Below are positions 6,684 to 62,360 of a DNA stretch of 64,000 nt, piece by piece. Both the position numbers and the translations under genes were made by a program. The DNA comes from a virus, in the IMG/VR virus record IMGVR_UViG_3300045988_169928, positions 1 through 64,000 of that record. One strand, 5' to 3'. A model generated the notes under the pieces. The model searched no databases, was not told where the DNA came from, and was given only the letters and a program-made list of their open reading frames with translations. Numbering within the stretch: the first letter of the stretch is position 1; each line of letters opens with the position of its first letter.

Positions 6684-6818
6684 ATCTATAACCCCCTTCG
6701 TTTCTACGCTATTATAGTACCACCTAGCCTATCCCCTGTCAACACCTTTTTGGGATTTATTTTTGATCACCCCCTATATATAAGAAGAAAAAATTAAGCA
6801 ATTAATTTGATTTATCTA

Positions 6819-6847
6819 TTGACAAACGTGATGAAAGGTGGTAGGAT
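6819..6847 (+). promoter_or_regulatory. rightward sigma70-like promoter (TTGACA-17-TGgTAGGAT), the only clear plus-strand promoter in the early/middle region
   Basis: ttgaca 6819-6824, 17-nt spacer, taggat 6842-6847 with an upstream TG. Confidence 0.45.
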
Positions 6848-8417: not shown

Positions 8418-9128
8418 TTAATTCATCTCTAGGCCAGCACGGTCTAGTTGTTTCAGCAATTCCTTACCTTCTTTAGTCGCCCCAATTTGAGTTAAGATCT
8501 CCTGTGATCGTTGTTCAAGGGCTTGTAAGGCTTCTTGTTGTCTAGTCTTAGGGACATACTGTAAGAACACTTCGGTCATCGCCGTTTGTTGGGCTTGCAT
8601 GATTAACTGATACTGCTTGAGGGCTTCACCAGTCAATCCTCGGTTCTTGGCGCCGTAATACTTCTCATATAATTCTAGGGTTTTCAACACTACCGGCAGG
8701 TCAATAAAGTCACTCTCTTGGATTGTGTGCATTCCCTTCTTGAGTAGCTCCTCTAACAACTGCTCCGAACTATAAACAGGAATAGGTTTGGCAACCCCCG
8801 TTTCTGGTTCCCCTGTATAGCCAGTAGCGTGTTCTAGAACATCTTCTAAACTAGCTTCTTGTTCTGCTGTATGTTCCTTGATCTCTTTCTTGGAGGAACG
8901 TTTATCTCCTAACATTTCAATTGGTACCCCAGTTTCTCGTGATTCGGTTAGTTTATCCTTTAAATGGGTTAAACCAGCGGTACTCATTTTATATCCTTTA
9001 GTTGCTAAGTATTTCAGAATATATCGGTACGATTGTTTCTGATCTAGCATATTGACCACTTTACTGTATAGTGGTTGGTCTGCAATTAATTCTTTTAGAC
9101 TAAGACTTTGTAATTCCTTCTTGGCCAT
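8418..9128 (-). CDS. hypothetical protein (236 aa)
   Basis: ORF with an RBS AGGGG upstream. Confidence 0.6.
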   Translation of the reverse strand: MAKKELQSLSLKELIADQPLYSKVVNMLDQKQSYRYILKYLATKGYKMSTAGLTHLKDKLTESRETGVPIEMLGDKRSSKKEIKEHTAEQEASLEDVLEHATGYTGEPETGVAKPIPVYSSEQLLEELLKKGMHTIQESDFIDLPVVLKTLELYEKYYGAKNRGLTGEALKQYQLIMQAQQTAMTEVFLQYVPKTRQQEALQALEQRSQEILTQIGATKEGKELLKQLDRAGLEMN

Positions 9129-13472: not shown

Positions 13473-13563
13473 AATAAACCTCGCATTTATCTAAGAATTA
13501 ACCTTATTATACCACGAGGTCAATAAAAAAGCCATACCCAATTTAGGATATGACTTAAAGAAT

Positions 13564-13836
13564 TTAATGAGTGGAGGATCCACTGCCAGAAGTAGGAGAA
13601 GCAGACCCGCTTGTAGCCGATGAAGCCGATGTAGGTGAACTAGCACCCGTGACAGCGGTTGACCCAACAGCAACCTTTGGTGACATACGCCCATCGCCAT
13701 CTTCAAAAGCTACTTGATACTTGCTTGCGTCAACAGAAGCAATCCCCTTTAGAGTTACCGAGGAAGCTCCCGGATTTCCTTGCGCTACCAGTTGACCATT
13801 CTGATCGTAAGCATTCAAAATTAATGTACTTGCCAT
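13564..13836 (-). CDS. small protein with a Ser/Thr-rich tail (90 aa)
   Basis: Strong RBS GGAGG upstream. The C-terminus is SSPTSASSATSGSASPTSGSGSSTH. Confidence 0.45.
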   Translation of the reverse strand: MASTLILNAYDQNGQLVAQGNPGASSVTLKGIASVDASKYQVAFEDGDGRMSPKVAVGSTAVTGASSPTSASSATSGSASPTSGSGSSTH

Positions 13837-13855: not shown

Positions 13856-14212
13856 CTAATTAATATAGCCCTGATGAATATTACCAATAATCGTGTAGGG
13901 CTTAATCAAAGCTAATTTGGGATTGTCAAAGGTAAATTGGCCAATCTTGTAAACTAACTTTTCTTTATCAAAATGAACCTTATATAAGTCCCCACCATTA
14001 CTTTCGATTAAATCACCATCATATATATCATGGCCCTTGCTATCTTGCTGGTGTAAGTTGTATTCAACTTTAAAGTCTTTGCCTACATGGCCAATTACGT
14101 CCATGAAGGTTAGGTTATTAGGGTCTAAGATGGTACCATCTTGAGCCAATACAAAGGTTGGTGTGTAATCATTGTATTCTTCACTCCAGATCCGATATTC
14201 ACTGTTATACAT
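13856..14212 (-). CDS. YopX-like protein
   Basis: C-terminal IIGNIHQGYIN resembles the YopX IGNI(Y/H)ENPELL hallmark. The N-terminal RIW motif also fits. Confidence 0.45.
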   Translation of the reverse strand: MYNSEYRIWSEEYNDYTPTFVLAQDGTILDPNNLTFMDVIGHVGKDFKVEYNLHQQDSKGHDIYDGDLIESNGGDLYKVHFDKEKLVYKIGQFTFDNPKLALIKPYTIIGNIHQGYIN

Positions 14213-14618
14213 TCTTTAAATACCCCCAACCATTAGAAACCACATCGACACCCGAGCCAAAAACGCCACAACAAACCCTATTATAACCATATATAGTAGC
14301 ATTATCACAAACTACAGCATATCCAGAAACATGAGCGTTATCATAAACCACAGCATTATCGCAAACCCAAGCATTACCTAAAACCATAGCATTACCATAA
14401 ACCTTAGCTTTATCACAAACTAGAGCATCTTCATAAACTTTAGCATTATTATAAACCCAAGCAGTATCAGATTGAGAAAGATTGTCATATCCTTCAATCC
14501 AGCCACCTAGATCGCCCTTCTTAACGTCCCCAAAGGACTTTACAGCCTTAATCTGATAAAGGGTATGGCCATCTACTTTCTTAGTGTGATGGGTTAATCT
14601 ATATTTCTTATTAAACAT
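14205..14618 (-). CDS. hexapeptide-repeat (left-handed beta-helix-like) protein, family member 1
   Basis: Six-residue periodicity A-x-V-x-(G/D)-(N/D/Y) over more than 12 turns. It shares the N-terminal domain (KY.LT..TK..GHTL.QIKA.KSFGDVKKGDLGGWIE.Y.NLSQS) with the other members. True start is MFNKKY. Confidence 0.6.
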   Translation of the reverse strand: MFNKKYRLTHHTKKVDGHTLYQIKAVKSFGDVKKGDLGGWIEGYDNLSQSDTAWVYNNAKVYEDALVCDKAKVYGNAMVLGNAWVCDNAVVYDNAHVSGYAVVCDNATIYGYNRVCCGVFGSGVDVVSNGWGYLKNV

Positions 14619-14638
14619 AATAGTAATCTCCTTAATCA

Positions 14639-15184
14639 TTAAGAAACCACAGCATTTCCGCGAACAAATGTAACCCCGCAAACACTAGCATAACCATGAA
14701 CTTTAGCATTACCATAAACTTTAGCTTTGTCCCAGACTTCGGCATTCCCATACACCATAGAATCACCATAAACCATAGAATCGTTAAAAACTATAGCGTG
14801 ACCATGAACTTTAGCATTATCACAAACTAGGGCACCATCATAAACTCTAGCACCACCATAGACCTCGGCACAGTCCCCAACCAGGGCATAATCAAAGACC
14901 TGGGCATGACCATGAACTTTAGCATTACCACAAACCCGAACATCACCATAAATCATGGCATGACCATAAACCAAAGCAGTATCAAAAACTTTAGCTTTAC
15001 CCCAGACCTTAGCTTTGTCATAAACCCAAGAATTACCAGATTGTGAGAGGTTAGAGTAACTTTCAATCCAGCCCCCTAAATCCCCCTTCTTTACATCACC
15101 AAAGGACTTTACAGCCTTAATCTGGTGAAGGGTGTGACCTTCTATTTCTTTAGTGTTATCTGTTAATTTATACTTCTTACTCAT
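14639..15184 (-). CDS. hexapeptide-repeat beta-helix protein, family member 2
   Basis: Same N-terminal domain and about 19 hexapeptide turns. Confidence 0.65.
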   Translation of the reverse strand: MSKKYKLTDNTKEIEGHTLHQIKAVKSFGDVKKGDLGGWIESYSNLSQSGNSWVYDKAKVWGKAKVFDTALVYGHAMIYGDVRVCGNAKVHGHAQVFDYALVGDCAEVYGGARVYDGALVCDNAKVHGHAIVFNDSMVYGDSMVYGNAEVWDKAKVYGNAKVHGYASVCGVTFVRGNAVVS

Positions 15185-15194
15185 AAGAAACTCC

Positions 15195-15863
15195 TTAGCC
15201 TTGTTGTCTTGATTTAACTAATTGTTCCGCAAAATGAACATACATCTCGTACATCTTTCCCGATAATTCCGAATCCTTGTATGCTTTCTTAATTAGTTCT
15301 TCCCCTGTTCCATCAAAACAACCCACGTGCCATCGCTGGTTAGACAAAACATAAACAAACTGTCTCCTCGATGACCAATTATTATTAAAGACTAGGTATG
15401 AACTATCGTCCTTAATATCATCATCTTCTCGAATGTTGATACTACTTTGAATTGCGCTATTACCATAAACTTTAGCATTCTTATATACTTGAGCATAACC
15501 ACAAACCATAGCATTACCATAAACCATAGCATTATCATAAACCCAAGCATGACCCATAACTTCTGCACTACCATATATCTGGGCATTATCACTTACTTGA
15601 GCATTACCTAGAATCTGTGTGTAATCAAAAACCTGTGCATTACCATAGACCCAAGCATTACCCCAAACTTCTGCATTACCATAAACTTCTGCATTTTCAC
15701 CAACCCAAGCATTACCAGAATGTGAGAGATTTAGGAAGCTTTCAATCCAACCACCTAGCTCACCCTTCCTTACGCCATCAAAAGACCTTAAAGCCTTAAT
15801 TCGATGAAGGACATGACCATCTACTACTTTAATGTTATCCGTTAATTCATACTTCTTGTTCAT
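15195..15863 (-). CDS. hexapeptide-repeat beta-helix protein, family member 3, with an extra 75-aa C-terminal domain
   Basis: Same family. The ORF-track start at 15926 reads through promoter B at 15899-15926, so the true start is MNKKYELTD. Confidence 0.65.
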   Translation of the reverse strand: MNKKYELTDNIKVVDGHVLHRIKALRSFDGVRKGELGGWIESFLNLSHSGNAWVGENAEVYGNAEVWGNAWVYGNAQVFDYTQILGNAQVSDNAQIYGSAEVMGHAWVYDNAMVYGNAMVCGYAQVYKNAKVYGNSAIQSSINIREDDDIKDDSSYLVFNNNWSSRRQFVYVLSNQRWHVGCFDGTGEELIKKAYKDSELSGKMYEMYVHFAEQLVKSRQQG

Positions 15864-15894
15864 AAGAAACTCCTTTCTTTTATCCTTTCGACAA

Positions 15895-15930
15895 CTATAT
15901 GATAACACGGCTAGGTAGATTGTCAACAGT
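15895..15930 (-). promoter_or_regulatory. type-B-like promoter (TTGACA-16-TATCAT)
   Basis: Plus tgtcaa 15921-15926 and atgata 15899-15904. Confidence 0.5.
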
Positions 15931-15944
15931 TTTTATAGAAATAG

Positions 15945-16640
15945 CTATTCTAGATACCCTTTGAGTTCCTCTACATACTCGTTTACTTCCTTGTTACTCA
16001 AATGATATTCTTTTTTAATGAACTCCAGACTTTCCCTTAATGAATATCCTTCTACTCCTACCATTAGTACAATCTCAATTAATGGTTCTACGTGTGATGA
16101 ATTGTTTTTAATCATACGAATCGTATTAATGGTAAACTCATCAATTTCATTATTATCACCTGTACTGATGATCTTGCTAATCACACTGTTCTTCTTTTTA
16201 GATTGTCCATAAGACAGTTTAGGCTGATCGTAGTTATAGTCAATTAAATCTTCCACGGTCAAAGTATCTGACTTCAACGGGGTAATATGTTGGTCATAGC
16301 GGTGTTTGTGTTCTAGGTAGCTACCACGAATGCGGATCTTCATCATCATTAAAATGTAGCCGGGAAAGTCTACATCGTTTTCCATATCGTATTCTTTTAC
16401 TAGATCAATGAATACTTCTGAGATATAAGCGTATAATTCTTGGCGATCAGTATAACTCATCTTAGTTTCTGTTCCACCATATAAACGGCCCAAGGACTTA
16501 ATCAAGTTATCATAGGTTTTAAGTAACTTTTCGGGATCCCGTAAAAAGGTTAGTTTATCACCCTTAGACCCAATGTAGATACCATTAAGTTCGTTAAAGA
16601 CATTCTTCTTATCATCATTATATCCAGTTTTATTAACCAT
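15945..16640 (-). CDS. putative phage sigma factor-like protein
   Basis: The segment YISEVFIDLVKEYDMENDVDFPGYILMMMKIRIRGSYLEH loosely resembles sigma region 2. It was not checked by search. Confidence 0.35.
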   Translation of the reverse strand: MVNKTGYNDDKKNVFNELNGIYIGSKGDKLTFLRDPEKLLKTYDNLIKSLGRLYGGTETKMSYTDRQELYAYISEVFIDLVKEYDMENDVDFPGYILMMMKIRIRGSYLEHKHRYDQHITPLKSDTLTVEDLIDYNYDQPKLSYGQSKKKNSVISKIISTGDNNEIDEFTINTIRMIKNNSSHVEPLIEIVLMVGVEGYSLRESLEFIKKEYHLSNKEVNEYVEELKGYLE

Positions 16641-16654
16641 AATTTACCCCTTTA

Positions 16655-16690
16655 ACACAAAAAAGCCTTAGCATAATGCTAAGACTATTT
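16655..16690 (-). terminator. Rho-independent terminator
   Basis: Palindrome cttagcat-a-atgctaag. On the minus strand it is followed by cttttttgtg. Confidence 0.55.
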
Positions 16691-16714
16691 CAACTTATTT
16701 ATTATAATTGTACA

Positions 16715-17077
16715 CTATTCCCAAAGACTAGAACCGTCTGACCAACAAGATTCTGGGTTATACACATCTTTAGTGATTAGGTTACAGAAGTTTAGGGTAT
16801 ATGGAATCTTAACGCCACTTAACTTATTAACTACATAGCCACGGGCAAAACGAGGATAGGTTTCAATAAACGTTACCACGGCGGTTGAGTTTGGGGTCTT
16901 GGCTTTAGAACGATAGATAAAAGCCCGATCACCATTCTGAATATGCTTATCAAACTTATCCCGATATTCTTGGTACACGTCCTCCGTAAAACGAGGCCCC
17001 AACCGTGATTCTGGCTGTGGCTGTTCATATAACTTGAGGTAGGCGAGTAAGTCGTCAACAATTTGATTATTGTTCAT
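16715..17077 (-). CDS. hypothetical protein (120 aa)
   Basis: ORF. Confidence 0.55.
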   Translation of the reverse strand: MNNNQIVDDLLAYLKLYEQPQPESRLGPRFTEDVYQEYRDKFDKHIQNGDRAFIYRSKAKTPNSTAVVTFIETYPRFARGYVVNKLSGVKIPYTLNFCNLITKDVYNPESCWSDGSSLWE

Positions 17078-18326
17078 TTAAGATTTCCCCCACTTCCTTA
17101 GCTAATCGATCAGGTAAGTTACCCTTACTATACTCACTCATAAAGTGCTTATAGTTGTATTCTTGGTACTTAGGTTCTAGCTTCTGTTGTTGGTGGATAT
17201 AGTATTCACGCATTCCTTTAATCATTGGGAACTGTTCTTCATACATAATCAGAGTTGTGTTAAACAACGGCGGATAACATTGTGGGAAAAAGTCCTTAAT
17301 TAGTTGTTGCCATAGTTGATCACGGATTGCTTGGTTCTCTGGTTCCTTGAGCTTCTCCACTAAGTCCATCGTATTCCGACCACCAATTAAGACTTCACCA
17401 TCTTCATTAGTATACTTAACTGATCGACCAGTAGAAATAATTCCAGCGTCTTGGCCCTCTAATACTAAGTTTAATTCGAGATCATAACCCCACTTACCAA
17501 TAATACCAGCCTGAAAGTCGCTTCCCCAGTTTTCACCAACCTTGGACTTAACAACCTTAACTCGAGTAATCTGACCAATTGGCTTGGTATCAGTAGACTT
17601 GGCCTTTAGATTGCCTGACTTCTGCAATGTGATACGAGTTGACAGCAAGTGTTCCCAACCCTTACCACCAACGGTCTTGAGTTGGGCATAGCGTGGGTTT
17701 GGGGCGTTAAAGTCATCACGTGCTTGATTAAGGGCAATTAGCATACCGTTATTAGCAATCAAATTAACTTGAATCTTACGGCCTACCACAGCTAAGGCCC
17801 GGGCTTGTTGTCCAACTAGCTGTTGCCCTAATTCTCCTTCTGCTTGCATGGAAGAATTGGTCATTGCCACGGTGTCCCATACGAACAAAACTACCCGATT
17901 CGGGTCAGCTTCATGAATTTTAGCTAAAGTATCAACAATGCTTCGACCAATTGATTCAACTGATAGTTCTTCCATAGTACCATCTTTAAGTCGTTTTGGC
18001 TTCATAGTTAATACTTGGTTCGGGTCAGCACCCAGTTCCTCTAACCGACTAGCGTCTTGGGTTCCTTCAACGTCATAGTAGATCGTAATTCCGCCCATCT
18101 TTTGAAGGTTCTTAATCATAAGACCCATCAAACTAGACTTACCTGCACTACTCTTACCTGCTACTTCGGAAACCCGACCACTAGCAGGGAAACCACCAAC
18201 CAAGTTGTAATCAAACCGAGGCATTAGCGTTGGCAACCAGTCATTAATTTCACCCATGCTAGTGCTACCATAAGTAACTAGGTTATCATTACCATTGAGT
18301 TGTCCTAAAATATCTTGTACTTCCAT
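17067..18326 (-). CDS. RecA/UvsX-like recombinase
   Basis: GGFPASGRVSEVAGKSSAGKSSL...GGITIYYDVEGTQD...LGADPNQVL aligns with the RecA core and includes a Walker A motif. Confidence 0.7.
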   Translation of the reverse strand: MEVQDILGQLNGNDNLVTYGSTSMGEINDWLPTLMPRFDYNLVGGFPASGRVSEVAGKSSAGKSSLMGLMIKNLQKMGGITIYYDVEGTQDASRLEELGADPNQVLTMKPKRLKDGTMEELSVESIGRSIVDTLAKIHEADPNRVVLFVWDTVAMTNSSMQAEGELGQQLVGQQARALAVVGRKIQVNLIANNGMLIALNQARDDFNAPNPRYAQLKTVGGKGWEHLLSTRITLQKSGNLKAKSTDTKPIGQITRVKVVKSKVGENWGSDFQAGIIGKWGYDLELNLVLEGQDAGIISTGRSVKYTNEDGEVLIGGRNTMDLVEKLKEPENQAIRDQLWQQLIKDFFPQCYPPLFNTTLIMYEEQFPMIKGMREYYIHQQQKLEPKYQEYNYKHFMSEYSKGNLPDRLAKEVGEILNEQ

Positions 18327-18343
18327 TTTTAACCTCCTAGCTA

Positions 18344-18799
18344 TTAGCGAACTAAAGCGCTACCGTTAATCCAAAGGTCTCCACCAACGTTAGCGTCACC
18401 CATAACCTGACTTTGACCAAAAACTTGAGCGTCATCATGAACCTTAGTATTACCACCAACTTGGGCATTATCTAATACTCTAGCATGGTCATAGACACAA
18501 GCATTACCATAAACTTTCGCATTATCTAAAACCTTAGTGTGATCATAGACCCAAGCGTTATCATATACCCGGGCATTATCATAAACCTGTGCATGATCTT
18601 CAATCCTTGCGTCATCACCAACCATTGCATCACCATAGACCCAGGCACTACCATATTGTGATAGGTTATCATAATCTTCAATCCAACCCCCTAGATCGTC
18701 CTTCTTAACATTACTAAAATCTTTTAATGCTTTAATTTGATGAAGGGTATGACCATTTACTACTTTAGTATGATCCGTTAATTCGTATTTATTATCCAT
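18344..18799 (-). CDS. hexapeptide-repeat beta-helix protein, family member 4
   Basis: Same N-terminal domain, followed by about 16 perfect AxVx(D/G)(N/D/H) turns. Confidence 0.65.
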   Translation of the reverse strand: MDNKYELTDHTKVVNGHTLHQIKALKDFSNVKKDDLGGWIEDYDNLSQYGSAWVYGDAMVGDDARIEDHAQVYDNARVYDNAWVYDHTKVLDNAKVYGNACVYDHARVLDNAQVGGNTKVHDDAQVFGQSQVMGDANVGGDLWINGSALVR

Positions 18800-18852
18800 A
18801 ATAAACCCCCCTAATAAAAAAGCCCCCGCCTAAGCGGTAGCCTTCAATTTTG

Positions 18853-20094
18853 TTAAATGTTGTCTAAGAAATCATCAAGTGATTGACTGCTTTCCAGTTG
18901 GCTCCCATCAGACGGTTGACTTGTATTACTAAATGGAAGATCATCATCTGACATTGTAGTTTGATTACCTGCAAAAGGTTGTTCATTAGAAATACTTTCA
19001 GAAGGACGAGGAGGCCATGTGGTAGTTTCATTTCCTACCCCGTCCCTATTTTCTGGATTGTTGCTAAAGTTAGGGGTTTGTGGTGTTGGCGCTTGACCCC
19101 CAAAACTAGGAGCTTGTTGGGTTGGTGCTTGGCTTCCGAAGTTAGGAGCTTGGGGGACACTGTTAGTATTCACACTTGGTTGTGGAGCTGGACTTGGTTG
19201 ACTAGGAGTAAACCCTTGTGCTTGTGGTGCCTGTGTTTGACTACGAGTATCTAAAGTTGTGATCCCTAACTTATTCATCTGTGTGTCTACGCTATCCTTA
19301 ACGTAGTTATATACCTTTTCATAGAAAGTAGGGCTAGTTTCTAACAATGGACGGCGTTCCTGTTTAAGATTAGGAATATACTTGTAGCTACCATCTTGTT
19401 CCTTTTCCAAGTAGTTAAAGGACATTGGAGGTAATGCAATCTGATTCAAAGCATTAGCCGTGCTAGACCAGTGCCGGTCTGAACCTTGGGTAGACTTTAA
19501 TTCAACAGGGAATGTTTGACCCGCACTAATAAATTGGAGTGGGGTGTTAAACAATGGTTGTCCTTGGTTGTTCATATAAGGAACACTTGGCTTGAGTAAC
19601 TCTACTAAGTTACGAAGCATACCATGAGAAATATCGAAAGCGTTGATGACTTCTTGGTTGGTATTGCCATCAATTTCTTCTACATAGGCCCCTTGTTGGT
19701 TAGGCCCAACTCGAACCCCAAGGAAGGTTGAACGTTCTTGCATTTGGAGGCCAAAGCGCCCACTAGCAATCTTAATCGCTTCTTCATTACTACTAGTAGC
19801 CTTCATTTGTGACCGGTTGTAAAAGAACACGTTAGCAATCAACTTCCCTAATACATCATTAGGGTCAGTCCGGTCAAAGATAACTGGAATGCTAGTTGGT
19901 TCTCCTTGACGATTAGTGTAGCTTAACCATGAACGAGTGTATGAAACAAAGGGAAACTCGCCTTCTTCCAAGGGGAGAACACGACCAACGAATGGTGTCT
20001 TACCAATGTTGATTGCCCGGAAATTGTTTTGTTGCTGTTGTTGTGCATTGTGCGTATCACCTAAAATGGCTTCAATCTGTTCTTCAAATGACAT
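18853..20094 (-). CDS. possible ssDNA-binding protein (gp32-like) with a Q/P-rich region and an acidic tail
   Basis: N-terminal PFVGRVLPLEEGEFPF resembles the gp32 core. The low-complexity APTQQAPSFGGQAP tract and the acidic DDDLPF tail are consistent with this. It is a tentative call. Confidence 0.4.
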   Translation of the reverse strand: MSFEEQIEAILGDTHNAQQQQQNNFRAINIGKTPFVGRVLPLEEGEFPFVSYTRSWLSYTNRQGEPTSIPVIFDRTDPNDVLGKLIANVFFYNRSQMKATSSNEEAIKIASGRFGLQMQERSTFLGVRVGPNQQGAYVEEIDGNTNQEVINAFDISHGMLRNLVELLKPSVPYMNNQGQPLFNTPLQFISAGQTFPVELKSTQGSDRHWSSTANALNQIALPPMSFNYLEKEQDGSYKYIPNLKQERRPLLETSPTFYEKVYNYVKDSVDTQMNKLGITTLDTRSQTQAPQAQGFTPSQPSPAPQPSVNTNSVPQAPNFGSQAPTQQAPSFGGQAPTPQTPNFSNNPENRDGVGNETTTWPPRPSESISNEQPFAGNQTTMSDDDLPFSNTSQPSDGSQLESSQSLDDFLDNI

Positions 20095-20136: not shown

Positions 20137-20772
20137 TTACTCGTCTTTTGCAACCTGTAATTGGTATTCAATTTCAACTAGGAATAATAACAAGTAACCC
20201 GCTAAATCAACTAAAGTATCTTGTAATGATTCATTAACCCGTGGGTCTGTACCAAAGGCGAGTGACTTAATTCGGTTGAGCTTATCAATAATACGTACCC
20301 CATAAGACGGTACCATTCCAAACAACTCTACCGTGTCATGAGTAGATGAACCATAGTCATGATTCTTAGCCTTTAGAATCCCAACAAGTGCAGTTAGTTC
20401 TTCCTTAAATTCATCTAGTTCCATTGGTCGTTCATCTAGCAAAAGGTGCATAATTTCCAAGGTGTTAAGGAACATATTCGTGATTAAGGATTCTACATAA
20501 GAAACGTCCTGTGTGTATAAAGTGTCATCTTCACTATACAGTTGACGCATTAGTAGATGAACGTTTTCCCTAGTCTTAATCAGGAAGTAGCTAGTAACTT
20601 CTTCATTATTGAGATCACTAGGCAACTTATGATATAGACGAAGGTACGTCTGATCTGGTGAATAGATTTGAACAAAACTATCCTTCGTTTTGAGATACTG
20701 GGTTGCTACATCTTCAACCCGATTTTCAACCGCTGTTAAATTAGAATCAAAAGTATCATTGTAACTATCCAT
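20137..20772 (-). CDS. hypothetical protein (211 aa)
   Basis: ORF. Confidence 0.55.
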   Translation of the reverse strand: MDSYNDTFDSNLTAVENRVEDVATQYLKTKDSFVQIYSPDQTYLRLYHKLPSDLNNEEVTSYFLIKTRENVHLLMRQLYSEDDTLYTQDVSYVESLITNMFLNTLEIMHLLLDERPMELDEFKEELTALVGILKAKNHDYGSSTHDTVELFGMVPSYGVRIIDKLNRIKSLAFGTDPRVNESLQDTLVDLAGYLLLFLVEIEYQLQVAKDE

Positions 20773-31689: not shown

Positions 31690-34600
31690 TTACATATTAT
31701 TTGAACCAGTTACTTCTTGAACAGTCCCTGAATCAGAGGTGTGTCCATCATCAGTACCTTGTGGGAAAGACCAGAAGTTATTTCGTTTATCCCTATTACC
31801 AAAGATAATCACATAGCCAGCCCCAAAGGCAATCCCTGCTAAAGTATCACCGGAGCCGGAAAGCAATGCTGGATAGTTGCCTTGAACATACCCACCACCA
31901 TTTTTATTGAAATGGACTAAACCTATTCTTAAAATGTTATCTCCACGTTGCCCATTGGGACTAGACAATGCAAAACCATACTCATTTCCATCAGCAAGAG
32001 GAACTGCGAAATTTGATCCATAACTTGGACTTTGAACGTGCCAATACAAACTACTACCATATCCATGGGCATTTCCATAAGAATCAAACCAAATACCAGA
32101 CGCTGAATTTGATTCGTCCCAATTAACATTGTATTGAGGTTCAATAGTATGTTCTAGTAAAGTGCTATAAGGGAGGGAACCATAAAAGGACAGTGCTGGT
32201 TGGGTTGCCGGATTTCCAAAGTTCATCTCACCAGAAATACCAATCCCTGATTTACCATTAATTGAAATGTGCATTCCACCACGATAACTATCCAAAAATG
32301 AATAGCTGGAATTAATTTCCAAACCTTCACTGGTTAGTTGTGTTTGCCCTGCAATTCTAACACCCAAAAAGTTACCAGGATTACTAATATGACTTAATTG
32401 TAATGATCCCAAGGGGCTAAACTTAGTCTGATACTCATTCACATATTGAGTTGAACTAGTGGTCGTTTGTCCCACAAAGATACCCATACGAACACTATCT
32501 ACAGAAACAACATAGGCTTTTTCATTACTACTAATACCCTTACTAATTAAATTTAGTTGTAATAGATTATTGTTAATATACTGTTTATACTCATCTTTCC
32601 AAACAAAGTAAAAGTCATACGTATAATAACCGGGCATTAGTGGTTGAAATTCACCATCAATTTCAGTGTAAATACTATCATTACCGGGCTTGGCTACCCC
32701 TAGGTTAATTTGTGCGAAACTAGCATTGGTTCCACTCTCGTAGTTAATAGGAATCGAAACAACAACCTTATCACCAGCAGTTAGGTTGTCTGAACGTATA
32801 AGCCCCAATACCCCAAATTGGGAAGCGTCTAAGTGTGGATAAGGCATACCAAAGCGGCCACCTAGGGAAGTTAATGTATCTAATCTACCACCAATTAGCT
32901 TAGATGTAAATTGGCTAAGATCAACTGCAAATGGATCGGTGACTGAAAGAGGTACCCCGTAGTTATCCCCTTGATTACCTCCCGGATTTGCTGATTCAAC
33001 ATAAACACTATGCAAATAAACATCACTTGATGGAGTATAAGCGACAATACTGTAACCACTTTGTTGGTAGCTGACTGGATTTCCGAAGAAATAGTGTGTA
33101 TTTTGAAGAGCAGTATCTGAATCTGAAACTTCAATAGTAACTCTGGCCCCATTATGCAAACCACAATGCCAAATATAAGCCCCAAAAACATAGGTTACGT
33201 TTGCAGATAGTTTAATTGTTTTATTTTGGGTCGGATATAAATCCGAATTCGATCCAAAAGTAAACAAAGATCCAACTAATCTAGGGAACTCAACAGTTGA
33301 TAAAGTCCAGCTAAGAGTATCGGAACCACCCCAGCCATTCATACCATTGCTATTCATACTTTGATTTACAGAACTGGTAATTGAATCAGTAATATTATAG
33401 TTAATAGTATACTGATTCATACTTCCTTGTTTGTCTTTATCCCAAATTGGAATATAATTTCTAGTGTCTGATACCCCATTAACTGGGGCACTGAACCGGT
33501 GGTTCCAACCATAAGAATCAGCATAAATATCACTTGTCACACCCAAAGCCCGCATAGCGTTATTAGGGGCACTACCAGTACCATTAAAGTTAACTTGACC
33601 AGTTGTCCAAGCGTTATTTAAACTAAGGTAAGAAGAGTTAACACCTGCTATTGAATTCATCAAGTTCAAGTCTTGGGACATACCAAAAGTGGTTTCACCA
33701 ATACTTGATACATGATAACGATACTTATCGGCTTCACTTAGCTTTGAATGATAAGCAGTCCCAATATCTAATTCAGACCCTTCAATTACACCATCTGAAT
33801 AAGTCCCATTAGAAATTTGAGCGTTTTTCGAGGTAGAGGTCATTGCCCCATTGCCATCAATTTTAAAACCTGAACCAAACACAATCTCACTATTTTGACT
33901 CGTCAAGGTAAGTTTATCAACAGACACATTACCATGAATTACAGCGTCTTGAGCGATTAAGGTACCAGATGAGGTTATCCACGTCTTAGTATTCCCAGAT
34001 TTATCCTTTGTAGCAAACAGACCAGCGTCACCAGCTAGAGAATCATTACTACCATAAGTGCCTGCTGTGCTTTGGCTACCAACTGATGGCCCTTGAATGG
34101 TTAAGCCACCCTTGGAAATGACAACACTACCACCACCTTGGGGAGAAACTTCCATTCCATTTTGGTCAATGGTAAAGGAGCCGTTTGCCGCTACAATCGA
34201 ACCATTAACAGACAACGTACCACTTAAAGTAAGATCTTGTCCTGAAAAGTCAACCCCTGATATATTACCTGTTGAGATGGTAGAACCTGTAATAGTAAGA
34301 TTACCATTGGTATCAACATGGAACACATCTACTCCCGACTTCTTAATTGCAAAACCATTACTTGAGTTAACTATTACCTGTGTTTTGTCTGCTGTGGCAG
34401 TTAAACCATTGTCATTAAGGGTGACACCCTTATAAGTTACGTCCTTACGAACAGCATTGGAAGATACATCGGCAATATTAGATGAATAATTAGTAGACAA
34501 CTTGTCTACCGTTACCATAAAGTTAACCCGGTTTACCTCATCTGGAGAGAAACTATATCCAGCCCGGAAGTAAGCAGTCTTAGCCGGCGCATTAGCATAT

Positions 34601-37600
34601 GCAACCAGTCGAGTGTTATTGGTACTAGAAATATGACCATTTGATACATAAGCGGTTAAGGTGGAAACTTGACCGTCCCCCTTCGAGCTACTTACCAACG
34701 TTTCATTGCTAGACCCTTGATAAGCAGGAGTGTGCCCGACAAAGGCAAAGGAAACCCGTCCCTGTAAATCAGCAGGTGCATAGGTAGAAGGCAATCCATA
34801 CGACTGTAACAAGGTACATAGATCTTGTGACGCTGTTTGGAAGTCGGTAGAATCTTGAATAAAGCTATCTCGGGTTGCAATTGCTACTACTAGATCTTGA
34901 CTAGAAATTGATTTTAAGTAGTTTACTAAAGCATTAGCATTATCAACCGTAGCAAACGTGTCCCAATATTGTGTATCTACCCTTCGTCCAGAATATGGAT
35001 CAAAAGTGGCAACAGTAGTGCCTCGCCCAGAAACAGCTAACTTAGATTGTAATAAACCAGACGTTTGAATATAAAGGTCTTGATAATTAGTTGTCGCGGC
35101 TTGAGAAACAATACTAATTTTTAGCATTCGTTCATTGTAGTAAACCCCATTCAAACTTTGTGGGTTAGTAAATTGACTATTATTACCATCTAAAGTGGAA
35201 TTTCCTTGATGGTTATTAGTACCATTAGAAATAAAATTGTGATCACTATCTGCAAACTCAACACTAGCACTAGTAGTTATTCCCGGATAAGCAGGATAAT
35301 CGTAGTGAGTTAGGAATACCCGTTGGCCCTCACTAATTGGATACCAAGGTGTATAGTATTTATTTTGTAACCAACTAGCATAGATACTGTCAGAAGGGTT
35401 AGGCGACCAAGGGTGGGCAACGGTACCTTCCTCGACCATTGGTAATCGTACATAAGCATCACAACTTTCACTCTTAGCATGGTAGATGATATGTGCTTTG
35501 TTTGCACTATTAACAGTTCCGCTGACAGCATATCTTGTCCAGTTGCTAGTTAAGGTGACTACTTTTGTAAAATCACCTTCACGACCAATCATAAATGTGC
35601 CAGACCCTTTCATTTCGACTGAGAACGTTTCTGAATCACCAATCGCAAATGGTTCTGTACTATTAGCATAGATAGCATTCCATCTACCATAGAATCCACC
35701 ACTGCTTGTGGTGCTTGTGATATGTGCTGTTGCTATGCCATCACTACCGGTATTCCAATCAACGGTTGGATTGTTTATATCTGTATTTGCAAAAGATTTT
35801 GAATTAAGCCATAGGTTTAGTCCGCCTCTATTGACAGAACTACCTTTTTGCAAAGTAGTTAAGTCCCAATAGTTACTACCCTGTGCTACCGTAATACTAT
35901 CGTCCCTAGTGTAATCTTTAATTGCATTCCCAGCAACTAACTTTACACTCCTAAAGGAAACGGTACCCTTAGTTTCACTATTGTAAACTTGACCCAATAA
36001 AGCAGTTAAAACAGACCCTTTATCCCACGTACCAGAAACAGTACACGTATAAGTTACCCAATCAGTAGTTAGTAATAACTTAGTCTCACTATCTGTACTG
36101 GTAAAGGTGCTAGTTTGGTTTGGAACACTAGGTGAAGTGGTAACTGATACTTGGGTGGTTTTATTCTGTAATTGTGAATATGCGTTCCCCCAAGCAGGGT
36201 ACATATGAACATAATCGCCGCTAACGGTACTTTTAGCTTGAACTTGGAATGTATAAGTAGTATCAGTTGAAGTATAGTCAAAAGGATAATCCCCATTGTA
36301 AGTGCTAGTCGAATCTAGAACAGGATTTGAGTAGTAAGTAACATCATCAACCATTAACAGGTTTTTATCACCATTGATATTGGCCTGTAAATTACTATCT
36401 AATGACTGAATAGTCAATTGTTGTAGTGTCCAATCGCTTTGAGTGAATGCACCGCTTGGTCTAGCAGTTGTACAGAAATAAGTTGACCCAGATGTTGTCC
36501 AAATATCCCCTAAATCATAGGGAGTAGTTGGGGTAGAGGTAAAGTTACGTTTCTTAGATGAATCAAACATCTTTACCCATGTGTACTTGGTAGGGTCATC
36601 TGAACTGGTTAGATTGTAATCAGTATAAGTACCAAAATAATTATAAGAATTATTACCAGGTGTATCTGTAAATCCTACACTACCATCTGCTGAATTAGCA
36701 TAAGCAATATGGAAATAAGTAGTTTGACCATCTGCACCTGGCTTACCTGGAACCCCATCGGCACCCTTAATTAAACTCCATGTATAATCAGTAGCTGTAC
36801 TTGACTCATTGCTACTTTCCTTGTTGTAAGCTATCCCGATATAGCTCATTCCCGTTGGTGAGTCGCTCATGCTACTCCCGCTACTATCAGTGGCATACTT
36901 AATCCACGTATAGTAAGTTTTGCCATCTACACCCTTAGCTCCTGGAATACCTTGGTCACCCTGATCACCTTTGGGACCTTGTACTAATTGCCAAGAGTAA
37001 AGTGCTGGATTAGTGCTATCAGTTTGTATGAAGTCCGTATAACTACCAATGTATTTTCTAGAACCAGGAGTATCAAGAGAAAAGTTTGTTTTACCATCAC
37101 TGCTATCAGCATAGGCAATATGGAGGTATGGTGTCTTACCATCAGCACCTGGCTTACCCGGTACCCCATCTTTACCATCTGCACCATCTGCACCCTTGAT
37201 TAATGACCAAGCGTATTTAGTAGGATCAGTGCTATCTTCAGATGTAAAGTCAACATACATACCAATATAAGTTCGATTGCTATCTGATACTGTAAAGTCA
37301 GTTTTACCGTCTAAAGAGTTAGCATAAGCAATATGAGTGTAACTTGACTTACCATCTGCACCAGCAGGTCCTTGAATACCTTGTTCACCTTTTGGGCCTT
37401 GAAGACCTTGTAAACCCTGTTCACCAGGGTCACCCTTTAGTCTAGACCATGTGTACTTAGTATGATCAGAGGAATCTTCTTCAGTAAAGTCAGTATAAGT
37501 ACCAACATATAAAGCATTAGCAAAGTAAGTTAAGTTAAAGCCATTAGTACCATCACTACTATTAGCATAGGCAAAGTGTACATAACTTGTTTTACCATCA

Positions 37601-62319: not shown

Positions 62320-62360
62320 GACTATATATTAACACACTCTATCAAATTGTCAACACTTTA
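62320..62360 (-). promoter_or_regulatory. sigma70-like promoter (TTGACA-16-TGtTAATAT) for the capsid-candidate gene
   Basis: Plus tgtcaa 62348-62353 and atatta 62326-62331. Two CTTGACTA boxes sit just upstream. Confidence 0.5.

Follow-up and report, generated by a model that had tools for sequence, protein, structure and literature searches.

Four paralogous YdcK-family beta-solenoid proteins encoded by a Limosilactobacillus fermentum phage

A 64,000-nt stretch of Limosilactobacillus fermentum phage DNA (hereafter the window) encodes four paralogous proteins, M1 to M4, which are uncharacterised members of the known YdcK family and do not represent a new kind of system. This family already has entries in Pfam (PF18836, YdcK beta-solenoid repeat), NCBIfam (NF040481, YdcK_fam) and PHROGs (5070 and 7964), and crystal structures of Salmonella YdcK have been solved (2F9C, 2PIG). 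The first-pass annotation had recognised no characterized system here, which holds for function but not for the family itself. We found no published function for YdcK, PF18836, PHROGs 5070 and 7964, or the homologues of phages Sfi19 (orf229) and LfeInf.

Results

The four ORFs proposed to form a paralog family with a common N-terminal domain are present in the window (Table 1), and their products share 46-61% identity in pairwise BLASTP alignments. The corresponding E-values (1e-41 to 1e-51) place their paralogy far past chance. Each gene starts with ATG and is preceded, 6-8 nt upstream, by a ribosome-binding site of the AAGGAG or GGGGG type. A tblastn search of the window revealed no fifth copy, the next-best match (38125-38319, E = 0.049) lying within a 2754-aa ORF. 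The surrounding genes encode YopX (PF09643), a sigma factor (phrog_1025) and a RecA/UvsX-like recombinase (PF00154, phrog_97), in agreement with the interleaving described earlier. M4 lies between a gene coding for a 413-aa protein and the UvsX-like recombinase gene. Furthermore, human gut metagenome contigs carry the same gene order together with an identical M2, which was found on 17 contigs.

Table 1. Positions of the family genes and of putative expression signals in the window.
Feature	Position	Strand	Description	Basis
M1	14205..14618	-	137 aa: N-module, 10 hexads, irregular Cys/Gly-rich tail	ORF + RBS
M2	14639..15184	-	181 aa: N-module, 21 hexads (~7 helix turns)	ORF + RBS
M3	15195..15863	-	222 aa: N-module, 15 hexads, C-terminal alpha/beta domain	ORF + RBS
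M3, N-module	15711-15863	-
M3, 15 hexads	15441-15710	-
M3, C-domain	15198-15428	-
M4	18344..18799	-	151 aa: N-module, 15 hexads; acidic, pI 4.8	ORF
Putative sigma-70/sigma-A-type promoter, extended -10	15899..15926	-	36 nt upstream of M3 start	TTGACA-N13-TGtTATCAT; 11/12 consensus positions
Putative terminator hairpin	13529..13556	-	Would close the M3-M2-M1-YopX-hyp90 unit	11-bp stem followed by T-run
Putative terminator hairpin	16664..16686	-	Follows the M4-UvsX-hyp120 group and lies upstream of the sigma-factor gene; putative function	10-bp stem followed by T-run

Promoters of the extended -10 class occur four times in the window, compared to 0.2 expected by chance. The one upstream of M3 would allow M3, M2 and M1 to be made early in infection from a host-type promoter, while M4 appears to be cotranscribed with the recombinase gene.

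Profile searches with the four proteins recovered the known family. M1 (43.0 bits), M3 (39.2 bits) and M4 (42.2 bits) exceeded the PF18836 gathering cut-off of 30 bits; M2 (25.1 bits, E = 1.4e-5) fell just below it, yet shares 46-61% identity with M1, M3 and M4. M1 (1e-60), M2 (2e-64) and M4 matched phrog_5070, whereas M3 matched phrog_7964 from end to end (E = 3.5e-80). All four aligned with NF040481 (E = 1e-18 to 1e-24), starting at profile positions 12-24 and covering about the first third of its 326 positions. Their scores of 67-87 bits, compared to an equivalog cut-off of 350, indicate that M1-M4 are domain-level relatives rather than orthologs of YdcK. Using phmmer, M2 aligned with YdcK (2f9c_A, E = 7.5e-20) through the N-module, residues 17-60 of M2 corresponding to residues 24-70 of YdcK. 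YdcK of Salmonella and E. coli is the top match by both sequence and structure, with a homologous N-module and the same type of hexad beta-helix; however, it has 326 aa and a longer and less regular helix than the phage proteins (137-222 aa), whose genes form arrays. Proteins of PHROGs 5070 and 7964, such as orf229 of Streptococcus phage Sfi19 and gp057, gp061, gp062 and gp064 of Lactobacillus phage LfeInf, share the architecture of M1-M4. No PADLOC-DB model matched any of the four proteins at E ≤ 0.01.

M1-M4 open with a common N-terminal module of about 51 aa, slightly longer than the 45 aa initially estimated, in which 25 positions are invariant among the four. The module is followed by A-x-V-Y-G-N hexads in continuous register, whose number (10, 21, 15 and 15 in M1 to M4, respectively) replaces the earlier count of 12 to 19 turns. 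Repeat number and surface residues vary between copies, as noted before. AlphaFold2 modelled M3 as a capped beta-helix (pLDDT 95.8) that is very probably left-handed, as had been anticipated, and the best Foldseek matches of this model in the PDB were 2f9c and 2pig (YdcK, probability 1.0), followed by the beta-helix proteins gamma-carbonic anhydrase, DapD and PglD. Based on this model, the N-module (a beta-hairpin and the first coil) almost certainly starts a left-handed beta-helix of uninterrupted hexads with an Ala/Val core, closed in M3 by the alpha/beta C-domain. Tyr or Phe recurs at hexad position 4 and Asn or Asp at position 6, where they would form corner ladders. Position 2, with a family-wide entropy of 3.7 bits compared to about 1 bit at core positions, would lie on the three flat faces.

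Only Ala and Val are conserved in the helix, both among the four paralogs and in a 56-member alignment, and all invariant polar residues map to the N- and C-domains. We detected no loop insertions in M1-M4, and no conserved His or other polar residue in the helices of the four paralogs or of 56 homologues. Across the family, the unbroken run of hexads ranges from about 1 to 37; some homologues keep both end domains with just 2-4 hexads, and some members have less than one turn. Repeat units reported by TRF (periods of 18, 36 and 54) matched by only 62-75% in the longer arrays, which makes the hexads old in terms of DNA sequence. Recent repeat slippage was rejected on this ground.

The C-domain of M3 (aa ~146-222, ~77 aa) folded confidently when modelled alone (pLDDT 90.8). 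The unique 75-aa domain reported previously is real, but unique within the window only, as the same domain is widespread in Streptococcus phages and also occurs in LfeInf. Free-standing versions exist among the homologues. In a phmmer search, the M3 C-domain did not align with YdcK. Its similarity to the KilA-N/APSES DNA-binding domain, in sequence or structure, was equivocal.

The N-module matches 8,850 clusters at 50% identity, and family members are encoded at no fewer than 589 IMG/VR loci. The family is represented among phages of Bacillota, Pseudomonadota, Bacteroidota, Fusobacteriota, Thermotogota and Actinomycetota. Copy number in related phages varies: arrays of 2-6 copies within 8 kb were found at 22 of the 80 IMG/VR loci sampled. 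Nearly all phage records among the tblastn matches listed for the N-module have it at a single place. Some family proteins contain several modules in one chain, joined by linkers and not forming continuous helices. Many homologues are named "polymer-forming cytoskeletal protein" by NCBI, whereas some records say "transferase" and some phage homologues are annotated as "pentapeptide repeat".

Family genes are found in early, lysogeny-switch and recombination modules of phages. The Sfi19 homologue lies between cro and gam/sak4, a Mannheimia phage homologue follows recT and an exonuclease gene, and the phiAGATE homologue, some 3 kb away from an ocr-like gene, sits amid small genes that are mostly annotated as hypothetical. 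The genes directly adjacent to the family at the 80 loci are diverse, the recurrent named ones being anti-repressors, RecT/Bet/Erf/UvsX, SSB and exonuclease. About 10 of 114 match recombination families and equally many match anti-repressors; for most, we found no recurrent named family. Clustering of the 241 neighbours at these loci yielded 208 clusters and no conserved partner gene. With neighbours this heterogeneous, guilt by association is weak.

Comparison with LfeInf, which is 93% identical to the window at the DNA level in this region, revealed a different layout of the copies. The window has three copies beside the sigma-factor gene and one beside uvsX, whereas LfeInf has one and three, respectively, plus a fifth, M3-type copy encoding 333 aa near the genome end. 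LfeInf gp057, the ortholog of M1, is a fusion of an M3-type head (nt 1-99, 100% identical) and an M1 body. Likewise, M4 is 91% identical to gp061 but is a mosaic, with the upstream region and 5' end of gp064, a gp062-like middle and the body of gp061. As judged from these sequences, the arrays grow and collapse by homologous recombination inside the N-module coding sequence, with genes being fused and deleted, and presumably duplicated by the same route.

For M4 and gp061, the sole clean ortholog pair, dN/dS was 0.26, compared to 0.00-0.10 for neighbouring genes. This value exceeds that of the neighbours but stays well short of 1, and mosaicism inflates it, since the differences between the two genes are mostly mosaic recombination in the N-module and not point substitutions; it is not evidence of positive selection. 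The diversifying interaction with host targets proposed at first is hypothetical.

Discussion

We tentatively propose, with somewhat less than even confidence, that M1-M4 are soluble, non-enzymatic YdcK-family proteins that are made early and act by binding through their variable faces, most likely as accessory modulators of host takeover and counter-defence or of phage recombination and replication. Recombination reshuffles the paralog set, as the comparison with LfeInf shows. Each paralog would be a rigid prism with its own length, charge and face chemistry. Such proteins would most plausibly work by sequestering host factors or blocking them, or else by modulating the recombination and replication proteins of the phage itself. 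The N-module may serve as a common docking site or as a common folding cap, and its extreme conservation could reflect folding or capping alone. Passages of the Aravind-lab papers on polyvalent proteins and jumbo phages and of the EVADES preprint gave no functional information on the family, and the main text of the anti-defence papers that we found describes no beta-solenoid, hexapeptide or pentapeptide fold.

Pentapeptide-repeat DNA mimics such as Qnr and MfpA, repeat beta-helices without enzymatic activity, exert their effect by surface mimicry or by binding. They may offer a functional analogy to M1-M4, which would likewise be non-enzymatic repeat beta-helices, but their period is five instead of six. 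DNA mimicry, one of the options raised in the first-pass annotation, is unlikely as a general mechanism and we rejected it as such because charge is not consistently acidic: the pI of the four paralogs ranges from 4.8 to 8.2, and across the family its median is 5.7, with 21% of members being basic.

The proteins could instead have no anti-host role and work as accessory factors of phage recombination or replication, as rigid adaptors or regulators of the UvsX-like recombinase, SSB, an Mre11-like exonuclease or DNA ends. We consider this unlikely. Although recombination genes recur next to the family, they represent only the ~10 of 114 immediate neighbours mentioned above, no more than anti-repressors, and no partner is conserved. 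Moreover, the phiAGATE member and the M3-type copy of LfeInf-like contigs are located amid early genes, far from recombination genes, and fold matches bearing on such a role were at noise level.

Still less probable, in our view, is a more specific reading in which the arrays are a recombination-driven repertoire of rigid binders. The N-module coding sequence would act as a crossover site that shuffles helices of differing length and face chemistry, so that phages could rapidly produce novel inhibitors or decoys aimed at targets in host defence or takeover. If true, the arrays would diversify, in the manner of a cassette system, a class of beta-solenoid counter-defence proteins that had not been recognised before.

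Bactofilin helices are right-handed and polymerise via their ends. Polymer-forming scaffolds of this kind, which would build filaments inside the infected cell by end-to-end assembly, would fit the cytoskeletal name of many NCBI homologues, and M2 (19.3 bits) and M3 (15.8 bits) weakly match Pfam Bactofilin (PF04519). However, both scores are under the 27.9-bit cut-off, M1 and M4 have no match, and multi-module relatives are linker-joined. In the predicted structures, the conserved cap module occupies the N-terminal end, and the C-terminal end of M3 is capped too, making this explanation very unlikely. A point in its favour is that the bactofilin BacM has been modelled using YdcK as the template (PMC4372379).

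Similarly, we find it highly improbable that M1-M4 are hexapeptide-repeat enzymes, i.e., acyl/acetyltransferases or gamma-carbonic-anhydrase-like trimers with active sites at the interfaces. M1-M4 do share with this trimeric LpxA-like superfamily the hexad logic (aliphatic at i, small at i+4) and the predicted left-handed beta-helix, such enzymes are the next structural neighbours after YdcK, and some homologues are named transferases. Hexapep (PF00132) exceeded its 27-bit cut-off in M4 (32.4 bits) and scored below it in M1 (25.2), M2 (23.9) and M3 (22.2). Matches to NCBIfam models for LpxA, LpxD, GlmU, PglB-like and gamma-carbonic anhydrase proteins reached only 10-30 bits against cut-offs of 150-660 and reflect the repeat only. 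Known left-handed beta-helix enzymes being trimers, a site that a monomer model does not show might conceivably lie at a trimer interface. Yet M1-M4 lack the loops, the substrate-binding domains and the conserved catalytic or metal-binding residues of LpxA-like enzymes, and the length of the helix is unconstrained; an enzymatic function is unlikely given the lack of loops and of conserved polar helix residues and the range of hexad numbers. The initial view that a catalytic motif is missing is supported.

Finally, phage tail spikes often contain beta-helices, but that these proteins are virion components such as fibre or spike parts is hardly credible given their small size, their place in a replication/recombination module behind a host-type promoter, the position of temperate-phage homologues between cro and replication genes, and the lack of any structural PHROG match for M1-M4.

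With thousands of matching clusters and a solved bacterial structure, the family is among the larger phage-associated protein families without known function. The window and LfeInf differ by reciprocal array collapse, which shows copy number to be changeable and provides ready-made natural "deletion mutants" and a convenient experimental pair. If M1-M4 are early-expressed binders as we propose, capped beta-helices would add a new structural class to the known host-takeover or anti-defence proteins, besides offering a natural scaffold for engineered binders.

Organization of M1-M4 and of the hexad repeats

Pairwise BLASTP comparison of the four hexapeptide-repeat (hexad) proteins M1-M4 gave identities of 46-61% (E values of 1e-41 to 1e-51) and, judged on sequence, they are clear paralogs. 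Alignment of the four proteins revealed a common N-terminal part of ~51 residues with 25 invariant positions, referred to here as the N-module, which is followed in each of them by hexads (consensus A-x-V-Y-G-N) in a strict six-residue register with zero insertions. We counted 10, 21, 15 and 15 hexads in M1, M2, M3 and M4, respectively, slightly off the 12-19 reported in the first-pass annotation, which had rightly described the extra C-terminal domain (C-domain) of M3 and the interleaving of the four genes with YopX-like, sigma-factor and RecA/UvsX-like genes. The GC skew is the strongest of the window at 14-16 kb (-0.33) because of codon repetition in the hexads. At the DNA level, the hexads have diverged (TRF periods of 18, 36 and 54, with just 62-75% matches in the longer arrays), and recent slippage was therefore rejected as their origin.

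tblastn searches using all four proteins as queries found no fifth copy in the whole window. M1 gave a weak match (E = 0.049) at 38125-38319, inside a very large ORF, which is probably chance or an unrelated beta-rich stretch. In a gut-metagenome variant of the same phage (contig L091, 664-1098), the M1 gene abuts M2 and is called as 144 aa vs 137 aa, a minor population-level variation of the array.

Coordinates of M1-M4 and of other features of the window
Feature	Position	Strand	Description
M1	14205-14618	-	137 aa; ATG start, good ribosome-binding site
M2	14639-15184	-	181 aa; ATG start, good ribosome-binding site
M3	15195-15863	-	222 aa; ATG start, good ribosome-binding site
M4	18344-18799	-	151 aa; ATG start, good ribosome-binding site
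Putative promoter	15899-15926	-	TTGACA-N13-TGtTATCAT; extended -10, host-type consensus; upstream of M3
Terminator-like hairpin	13529-13556	-	3' of the fifth gene downstream of the promoter
Terminator-like site	16664-16686	-	beyond M4, the UvsX-like gene and the 120-aa gene
Imperfect hairpin	18810-18845	-	GC-rich, then T-run (GCTACCGCTTAGGCGGGGGCTTTTTT); directly upstream of M4
hyp90	13564-13836	-	90 aa; Ser/Thr/Gly-rich tail
413-aa protein gene	18853-20094	-	phrog_18678, unknown function; long Gln/Pro-rich tail
DUF1599 protein gene	20137-20772	-	211 aa; 'nucleotide modification associated domain 1' (PF07659); replication module
Very large ORF	31690-39954	-	2,754 aa

Family assignment and predicted fold

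M1, M3 and M4 matched the Pfam model PF18836 ('YdcK beta solenoid repeat') above its gathering score, with M2 just below. All four matched the N-terminal third of the NCBIfam profile YdcK_fam alike, as well as PHROG 5070, and M3 matched PHROG 7964 end to end, both PHROGs being labelled 'unknown function'. The closest solved structure was that of Salmonella YdcK (2F9C/2PIG; E = 7.5e-20, with the N-module within the alignment), a structural-genomics protein without known function. The full YdcK equivalog model scored M1-M4 at 67-87 bits vs a cut-off of 350 bits, therefore these proteins are domain-level relatives of YdcK, not orthologs. The first-pass annotation had correctly seen a family of uncharacterised function but recognized no known system; since the family is catalogued and has a solved structure, M1-M4 are further members of a known family.

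M3 was modelled with AlphaFold2 using 55 homologs (mean pLDDT of 95.8). The model consists of an N-terminal beta-hairpin and first coil, fifteen two-residue strands at hexad spacing, and a four-stranded C-terminal domain with two helices. A Foldseek search of the PDB with M3 placed YdcK at the top, followed by gamma-carbonic anhydrases, DapD, PglD and LpxD, all of which have a left-handed beta-helix. M1-M4 are thus predicted, almost certainly, to be capped left-handed beta-helices of the YdcK family.

Distribution of the family and of its end domains

M3 as the query matched over 6,000 clusters defined at 90% identity. With a 66-residue N-module query, the representatives of 8,850 clusters (50% identity) were matched at E <= 1e-3, and those of 3,442 at the stricter threshold of E <= 1e-10. 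The N-module (consensus KKYxLTxxTKxxxGxTLHRIKALKxFxDVKxGDLGGWIExExNLSQxGNCWVYD) has no Pfam model. It was found in 81 GenBank phage records, at a single place in nearly all those listed, from phages of Streptococcus, Liberibacter, Bacillus, Vibrio, Edwardsiella, Xanthomonas, Mannheimia, Bacteroides, Fusobacterium, Oceanotoga, Mycobacterium and others. N-modules from phages that infect unrelated hosts were 36-63% identical to that of M2, and the 26 sequences selected for one homolog alignment (A4) shared 55-70% identity; conservation of the module across phyla is remarkable.

The family occupies at least 589 IMG/VR loci, and 22 of the best 80 carry two to six N-modules within 8 kb. Tandem arrays are recurrent in the family, and the phage of the window is therefore not unique in its four-gene expansion. 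Helix length is not conserved and is evidently unconstrained: across 203 family members, unbroken runs comprise 1-37 hexads (median of 15), some homologs of ~145 aa retain both end domains with just 2-4 hexads, and free-standing C-domains of ~80 aa exist. Furthermore, some relatives carry several complete modules per chain, joined by linkers. A 592-aa protein has three; among the database proteins P0121, P0124, P0129, P0140 and P0154, some combine two or three units of N-module plus helix, with or without a C-domain, in a single polypeptide; proteins with N-module matches reach 2,114 aa. Such multi-module proteins are fused equivalents of the tandem gene arrays. One relative also has an N-terminal HTH domain.

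Among predicted viral structures, the end-domain fold recurs C-terminally in other phage solenoid proteins (TM 0.63-0.70, 13-30% identity). Examples are a 333-aa protein of the comparison phage LfeInf, proteins of Listeria phage LMTA-57 and of Bacillus phages phiAGATE and Bp8p-T, and ORF044 of Staphylococcus phage Twort. Phage beta-solenoids are therefore recurrently partnered or capped by this fold.

Array turnover between the window and LfeInf

Over 80% of its length, the window shares 93% identity with Limosilactobacillus (Lactobacillus) fermentum phage LfeInf (Herelleviridae, Hopescreekvirus). Its exact gene order recurs on human gut metagenome contigs, and an identical M2 is present on 17 contigs. 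LfeInf also has four copies in the corresponding region, in a layout reversed relative to the window: a single copy (gp057) separates YopX from the sigma gene, and the other three (gp064, gp062 and gp061) are upstream of uvsX. A fifth copy, of the M3 type, is close to the genome end, and related ~106-kb contigs carry a longer M3-type gene (297-310 aa) at another position that would fall outside the window.

The first 99 nt of gp057 are identical to M3 (95% amino-acid identity and a dS of 0.02 over the first 42 codons) and the remainder corresponds to M1 (87% amino-acid identity), making gp057 a chimera of an M3 head and an M1 body. The intergenic sequence upstream of M4 is that of gp064; the 5' coding segment of M4 is nearest to gp064, then to gp062, and from nt 133 on M4 is identical to gp061. 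These two mosaics therefore show that in each lineage one three-gene array collapsed into a single gene. The collapse occurred by crossover inside the conserved N-module coding sequence, and an ancestor with three plus three copies is the simplest one. Gain and loss of copies by recombination is thus strongly indicated.

M4 and gp061 have a dN/dS of 0.26 vs 0.00-0.10 in nine flanking genes. Since nine of their 14 amino-acid differences fall within the mosaic N-module, most of this excess is due to recombination, and it does not constitute evidence of positive selection.

A 69-aa gene located between gp064 and gp062, gp063 (8450-8656 of LfeInf, L001), is missing from the window along with these two genes. 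The hyp90 protein is 100% identical to LfeInf gp055, and the dS of its gene is 0.014 vs 0.10-0.37 in its neighbours, which points to either recent exchange or nucleotide-level constraint.

Genomic context and expression

The putative promoter upstream of M3 and the terminator-like hairpin at the other end would bound a single transcription unit, M3-M2-M1-YopX-hyp90. Extended -10 promoters of this class number four in the window vs 0.2 expected by chance. The other three (TTGACA-N12-14-TGnTAnnnT) are at 6714-6742 (-), 6819-6847 (+) and 62326-62353 (-); the first two form a divergent pair, possibly the sign of a control region for early genes. M4 is followed downstream by the UvsX-like gene and the 120-aa gene. 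The imperfect hairpin preceding M4 is kept upstream of LfeInf gp064 and was not called by the terminator scan; it could act as a weak terminator separating the 413-aa gene from M4. The 413-aa protein, an ortholog of LfeInf gp065, has a DDDLPF motif close to its C-terminus that is similar to the acidic C-terminal tip of bacterial SSB (DDDIPF). This protein may be a phage SSB or a decoy for SSB-interacting proteins. The DUF1599 protein could be a sign that the phage modifies its DNA bases.

In other phages, members of the family also occupy early regions. The homolog of S. thermophilus phage Sfi19 lies in the interval from cro to the gam/sak4/helicase genes, with AcrIIA6 three genes upstream; that of Javan14 precedes DnaC-like replication genes; that of a Mannheimia phage directly follows recT and an exonuclease gene; and that of phiAGATE is among small genes mostly annotated as hypothetical, ~3 kb from an ocr-like gene. 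At 80 viral loci, the 241 neighbours fell into 208 sequence clusters, therefore no partner gene is conserved. The recurrent annotated neighbours were anti-repressors, RecT/Bet/Erf/UvsX recombinases, SSB and exonuclease, which assigns the family to the early module for the lysogeny switch and recombination; a location in early or accessory modules is strongly predicted. In lambdoid phages, many known host-takeover and anti-defence genes reside in this module. That M1-M4 are dedicated recombination or replication accessory proteins seems unlikely.

Proposed role of M1-M4

No catalytic apparatus is detectable in M1-M4, and an enzymatic role is highly improbable. The helix has no loop insertions, and its only conserved residues in the four-paralog and 56-member alignments are core Ala and Val, all invariant polar residues being in the N- or C-terminal domain. 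Furthermore, members with less than one helical turn cannot build an LpxA- or PglD-type acyl-CoA site. Transferase and gamma-carbonic anhydrase models scored 10-30 bits vs cut-offs of 150-660, so these matches reflect the repeat only. A bactofilin-like polymer, for which the Bactofilin matches were below the Pfam threshold, and a virion component are each highly improbable as well. The charge distribution argues against general DNA mimicry, and none of the PADLOC defence models matched M1-M4.

Hexad position 2 is highly variable (3.7 bits) beside invariant core positions, and M1-M4 differ in length and charge (pI 4.8-8.2). We tentatively propose that they could be non-enzymatic, early, host-directed binders. 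They would act by binding rather than catalysis, each paralog offering a distinct rigid surface. The N-module could serve as a folding cap or as a shared site that docks onto something conserved universally. The proteins may help to take over the host or to counter its defences, or may modulate the recombination machinery of the phage itself.

The scale of the family in phages, its recurrent arrays and the N-module-mediated array collapse relative to LfeInf appear to be undescribed in the searchable literature, and array turnover by recombination is the clearest new result here. The M1-M4 family represents very common 'dark' phage genes with a clean structural model.
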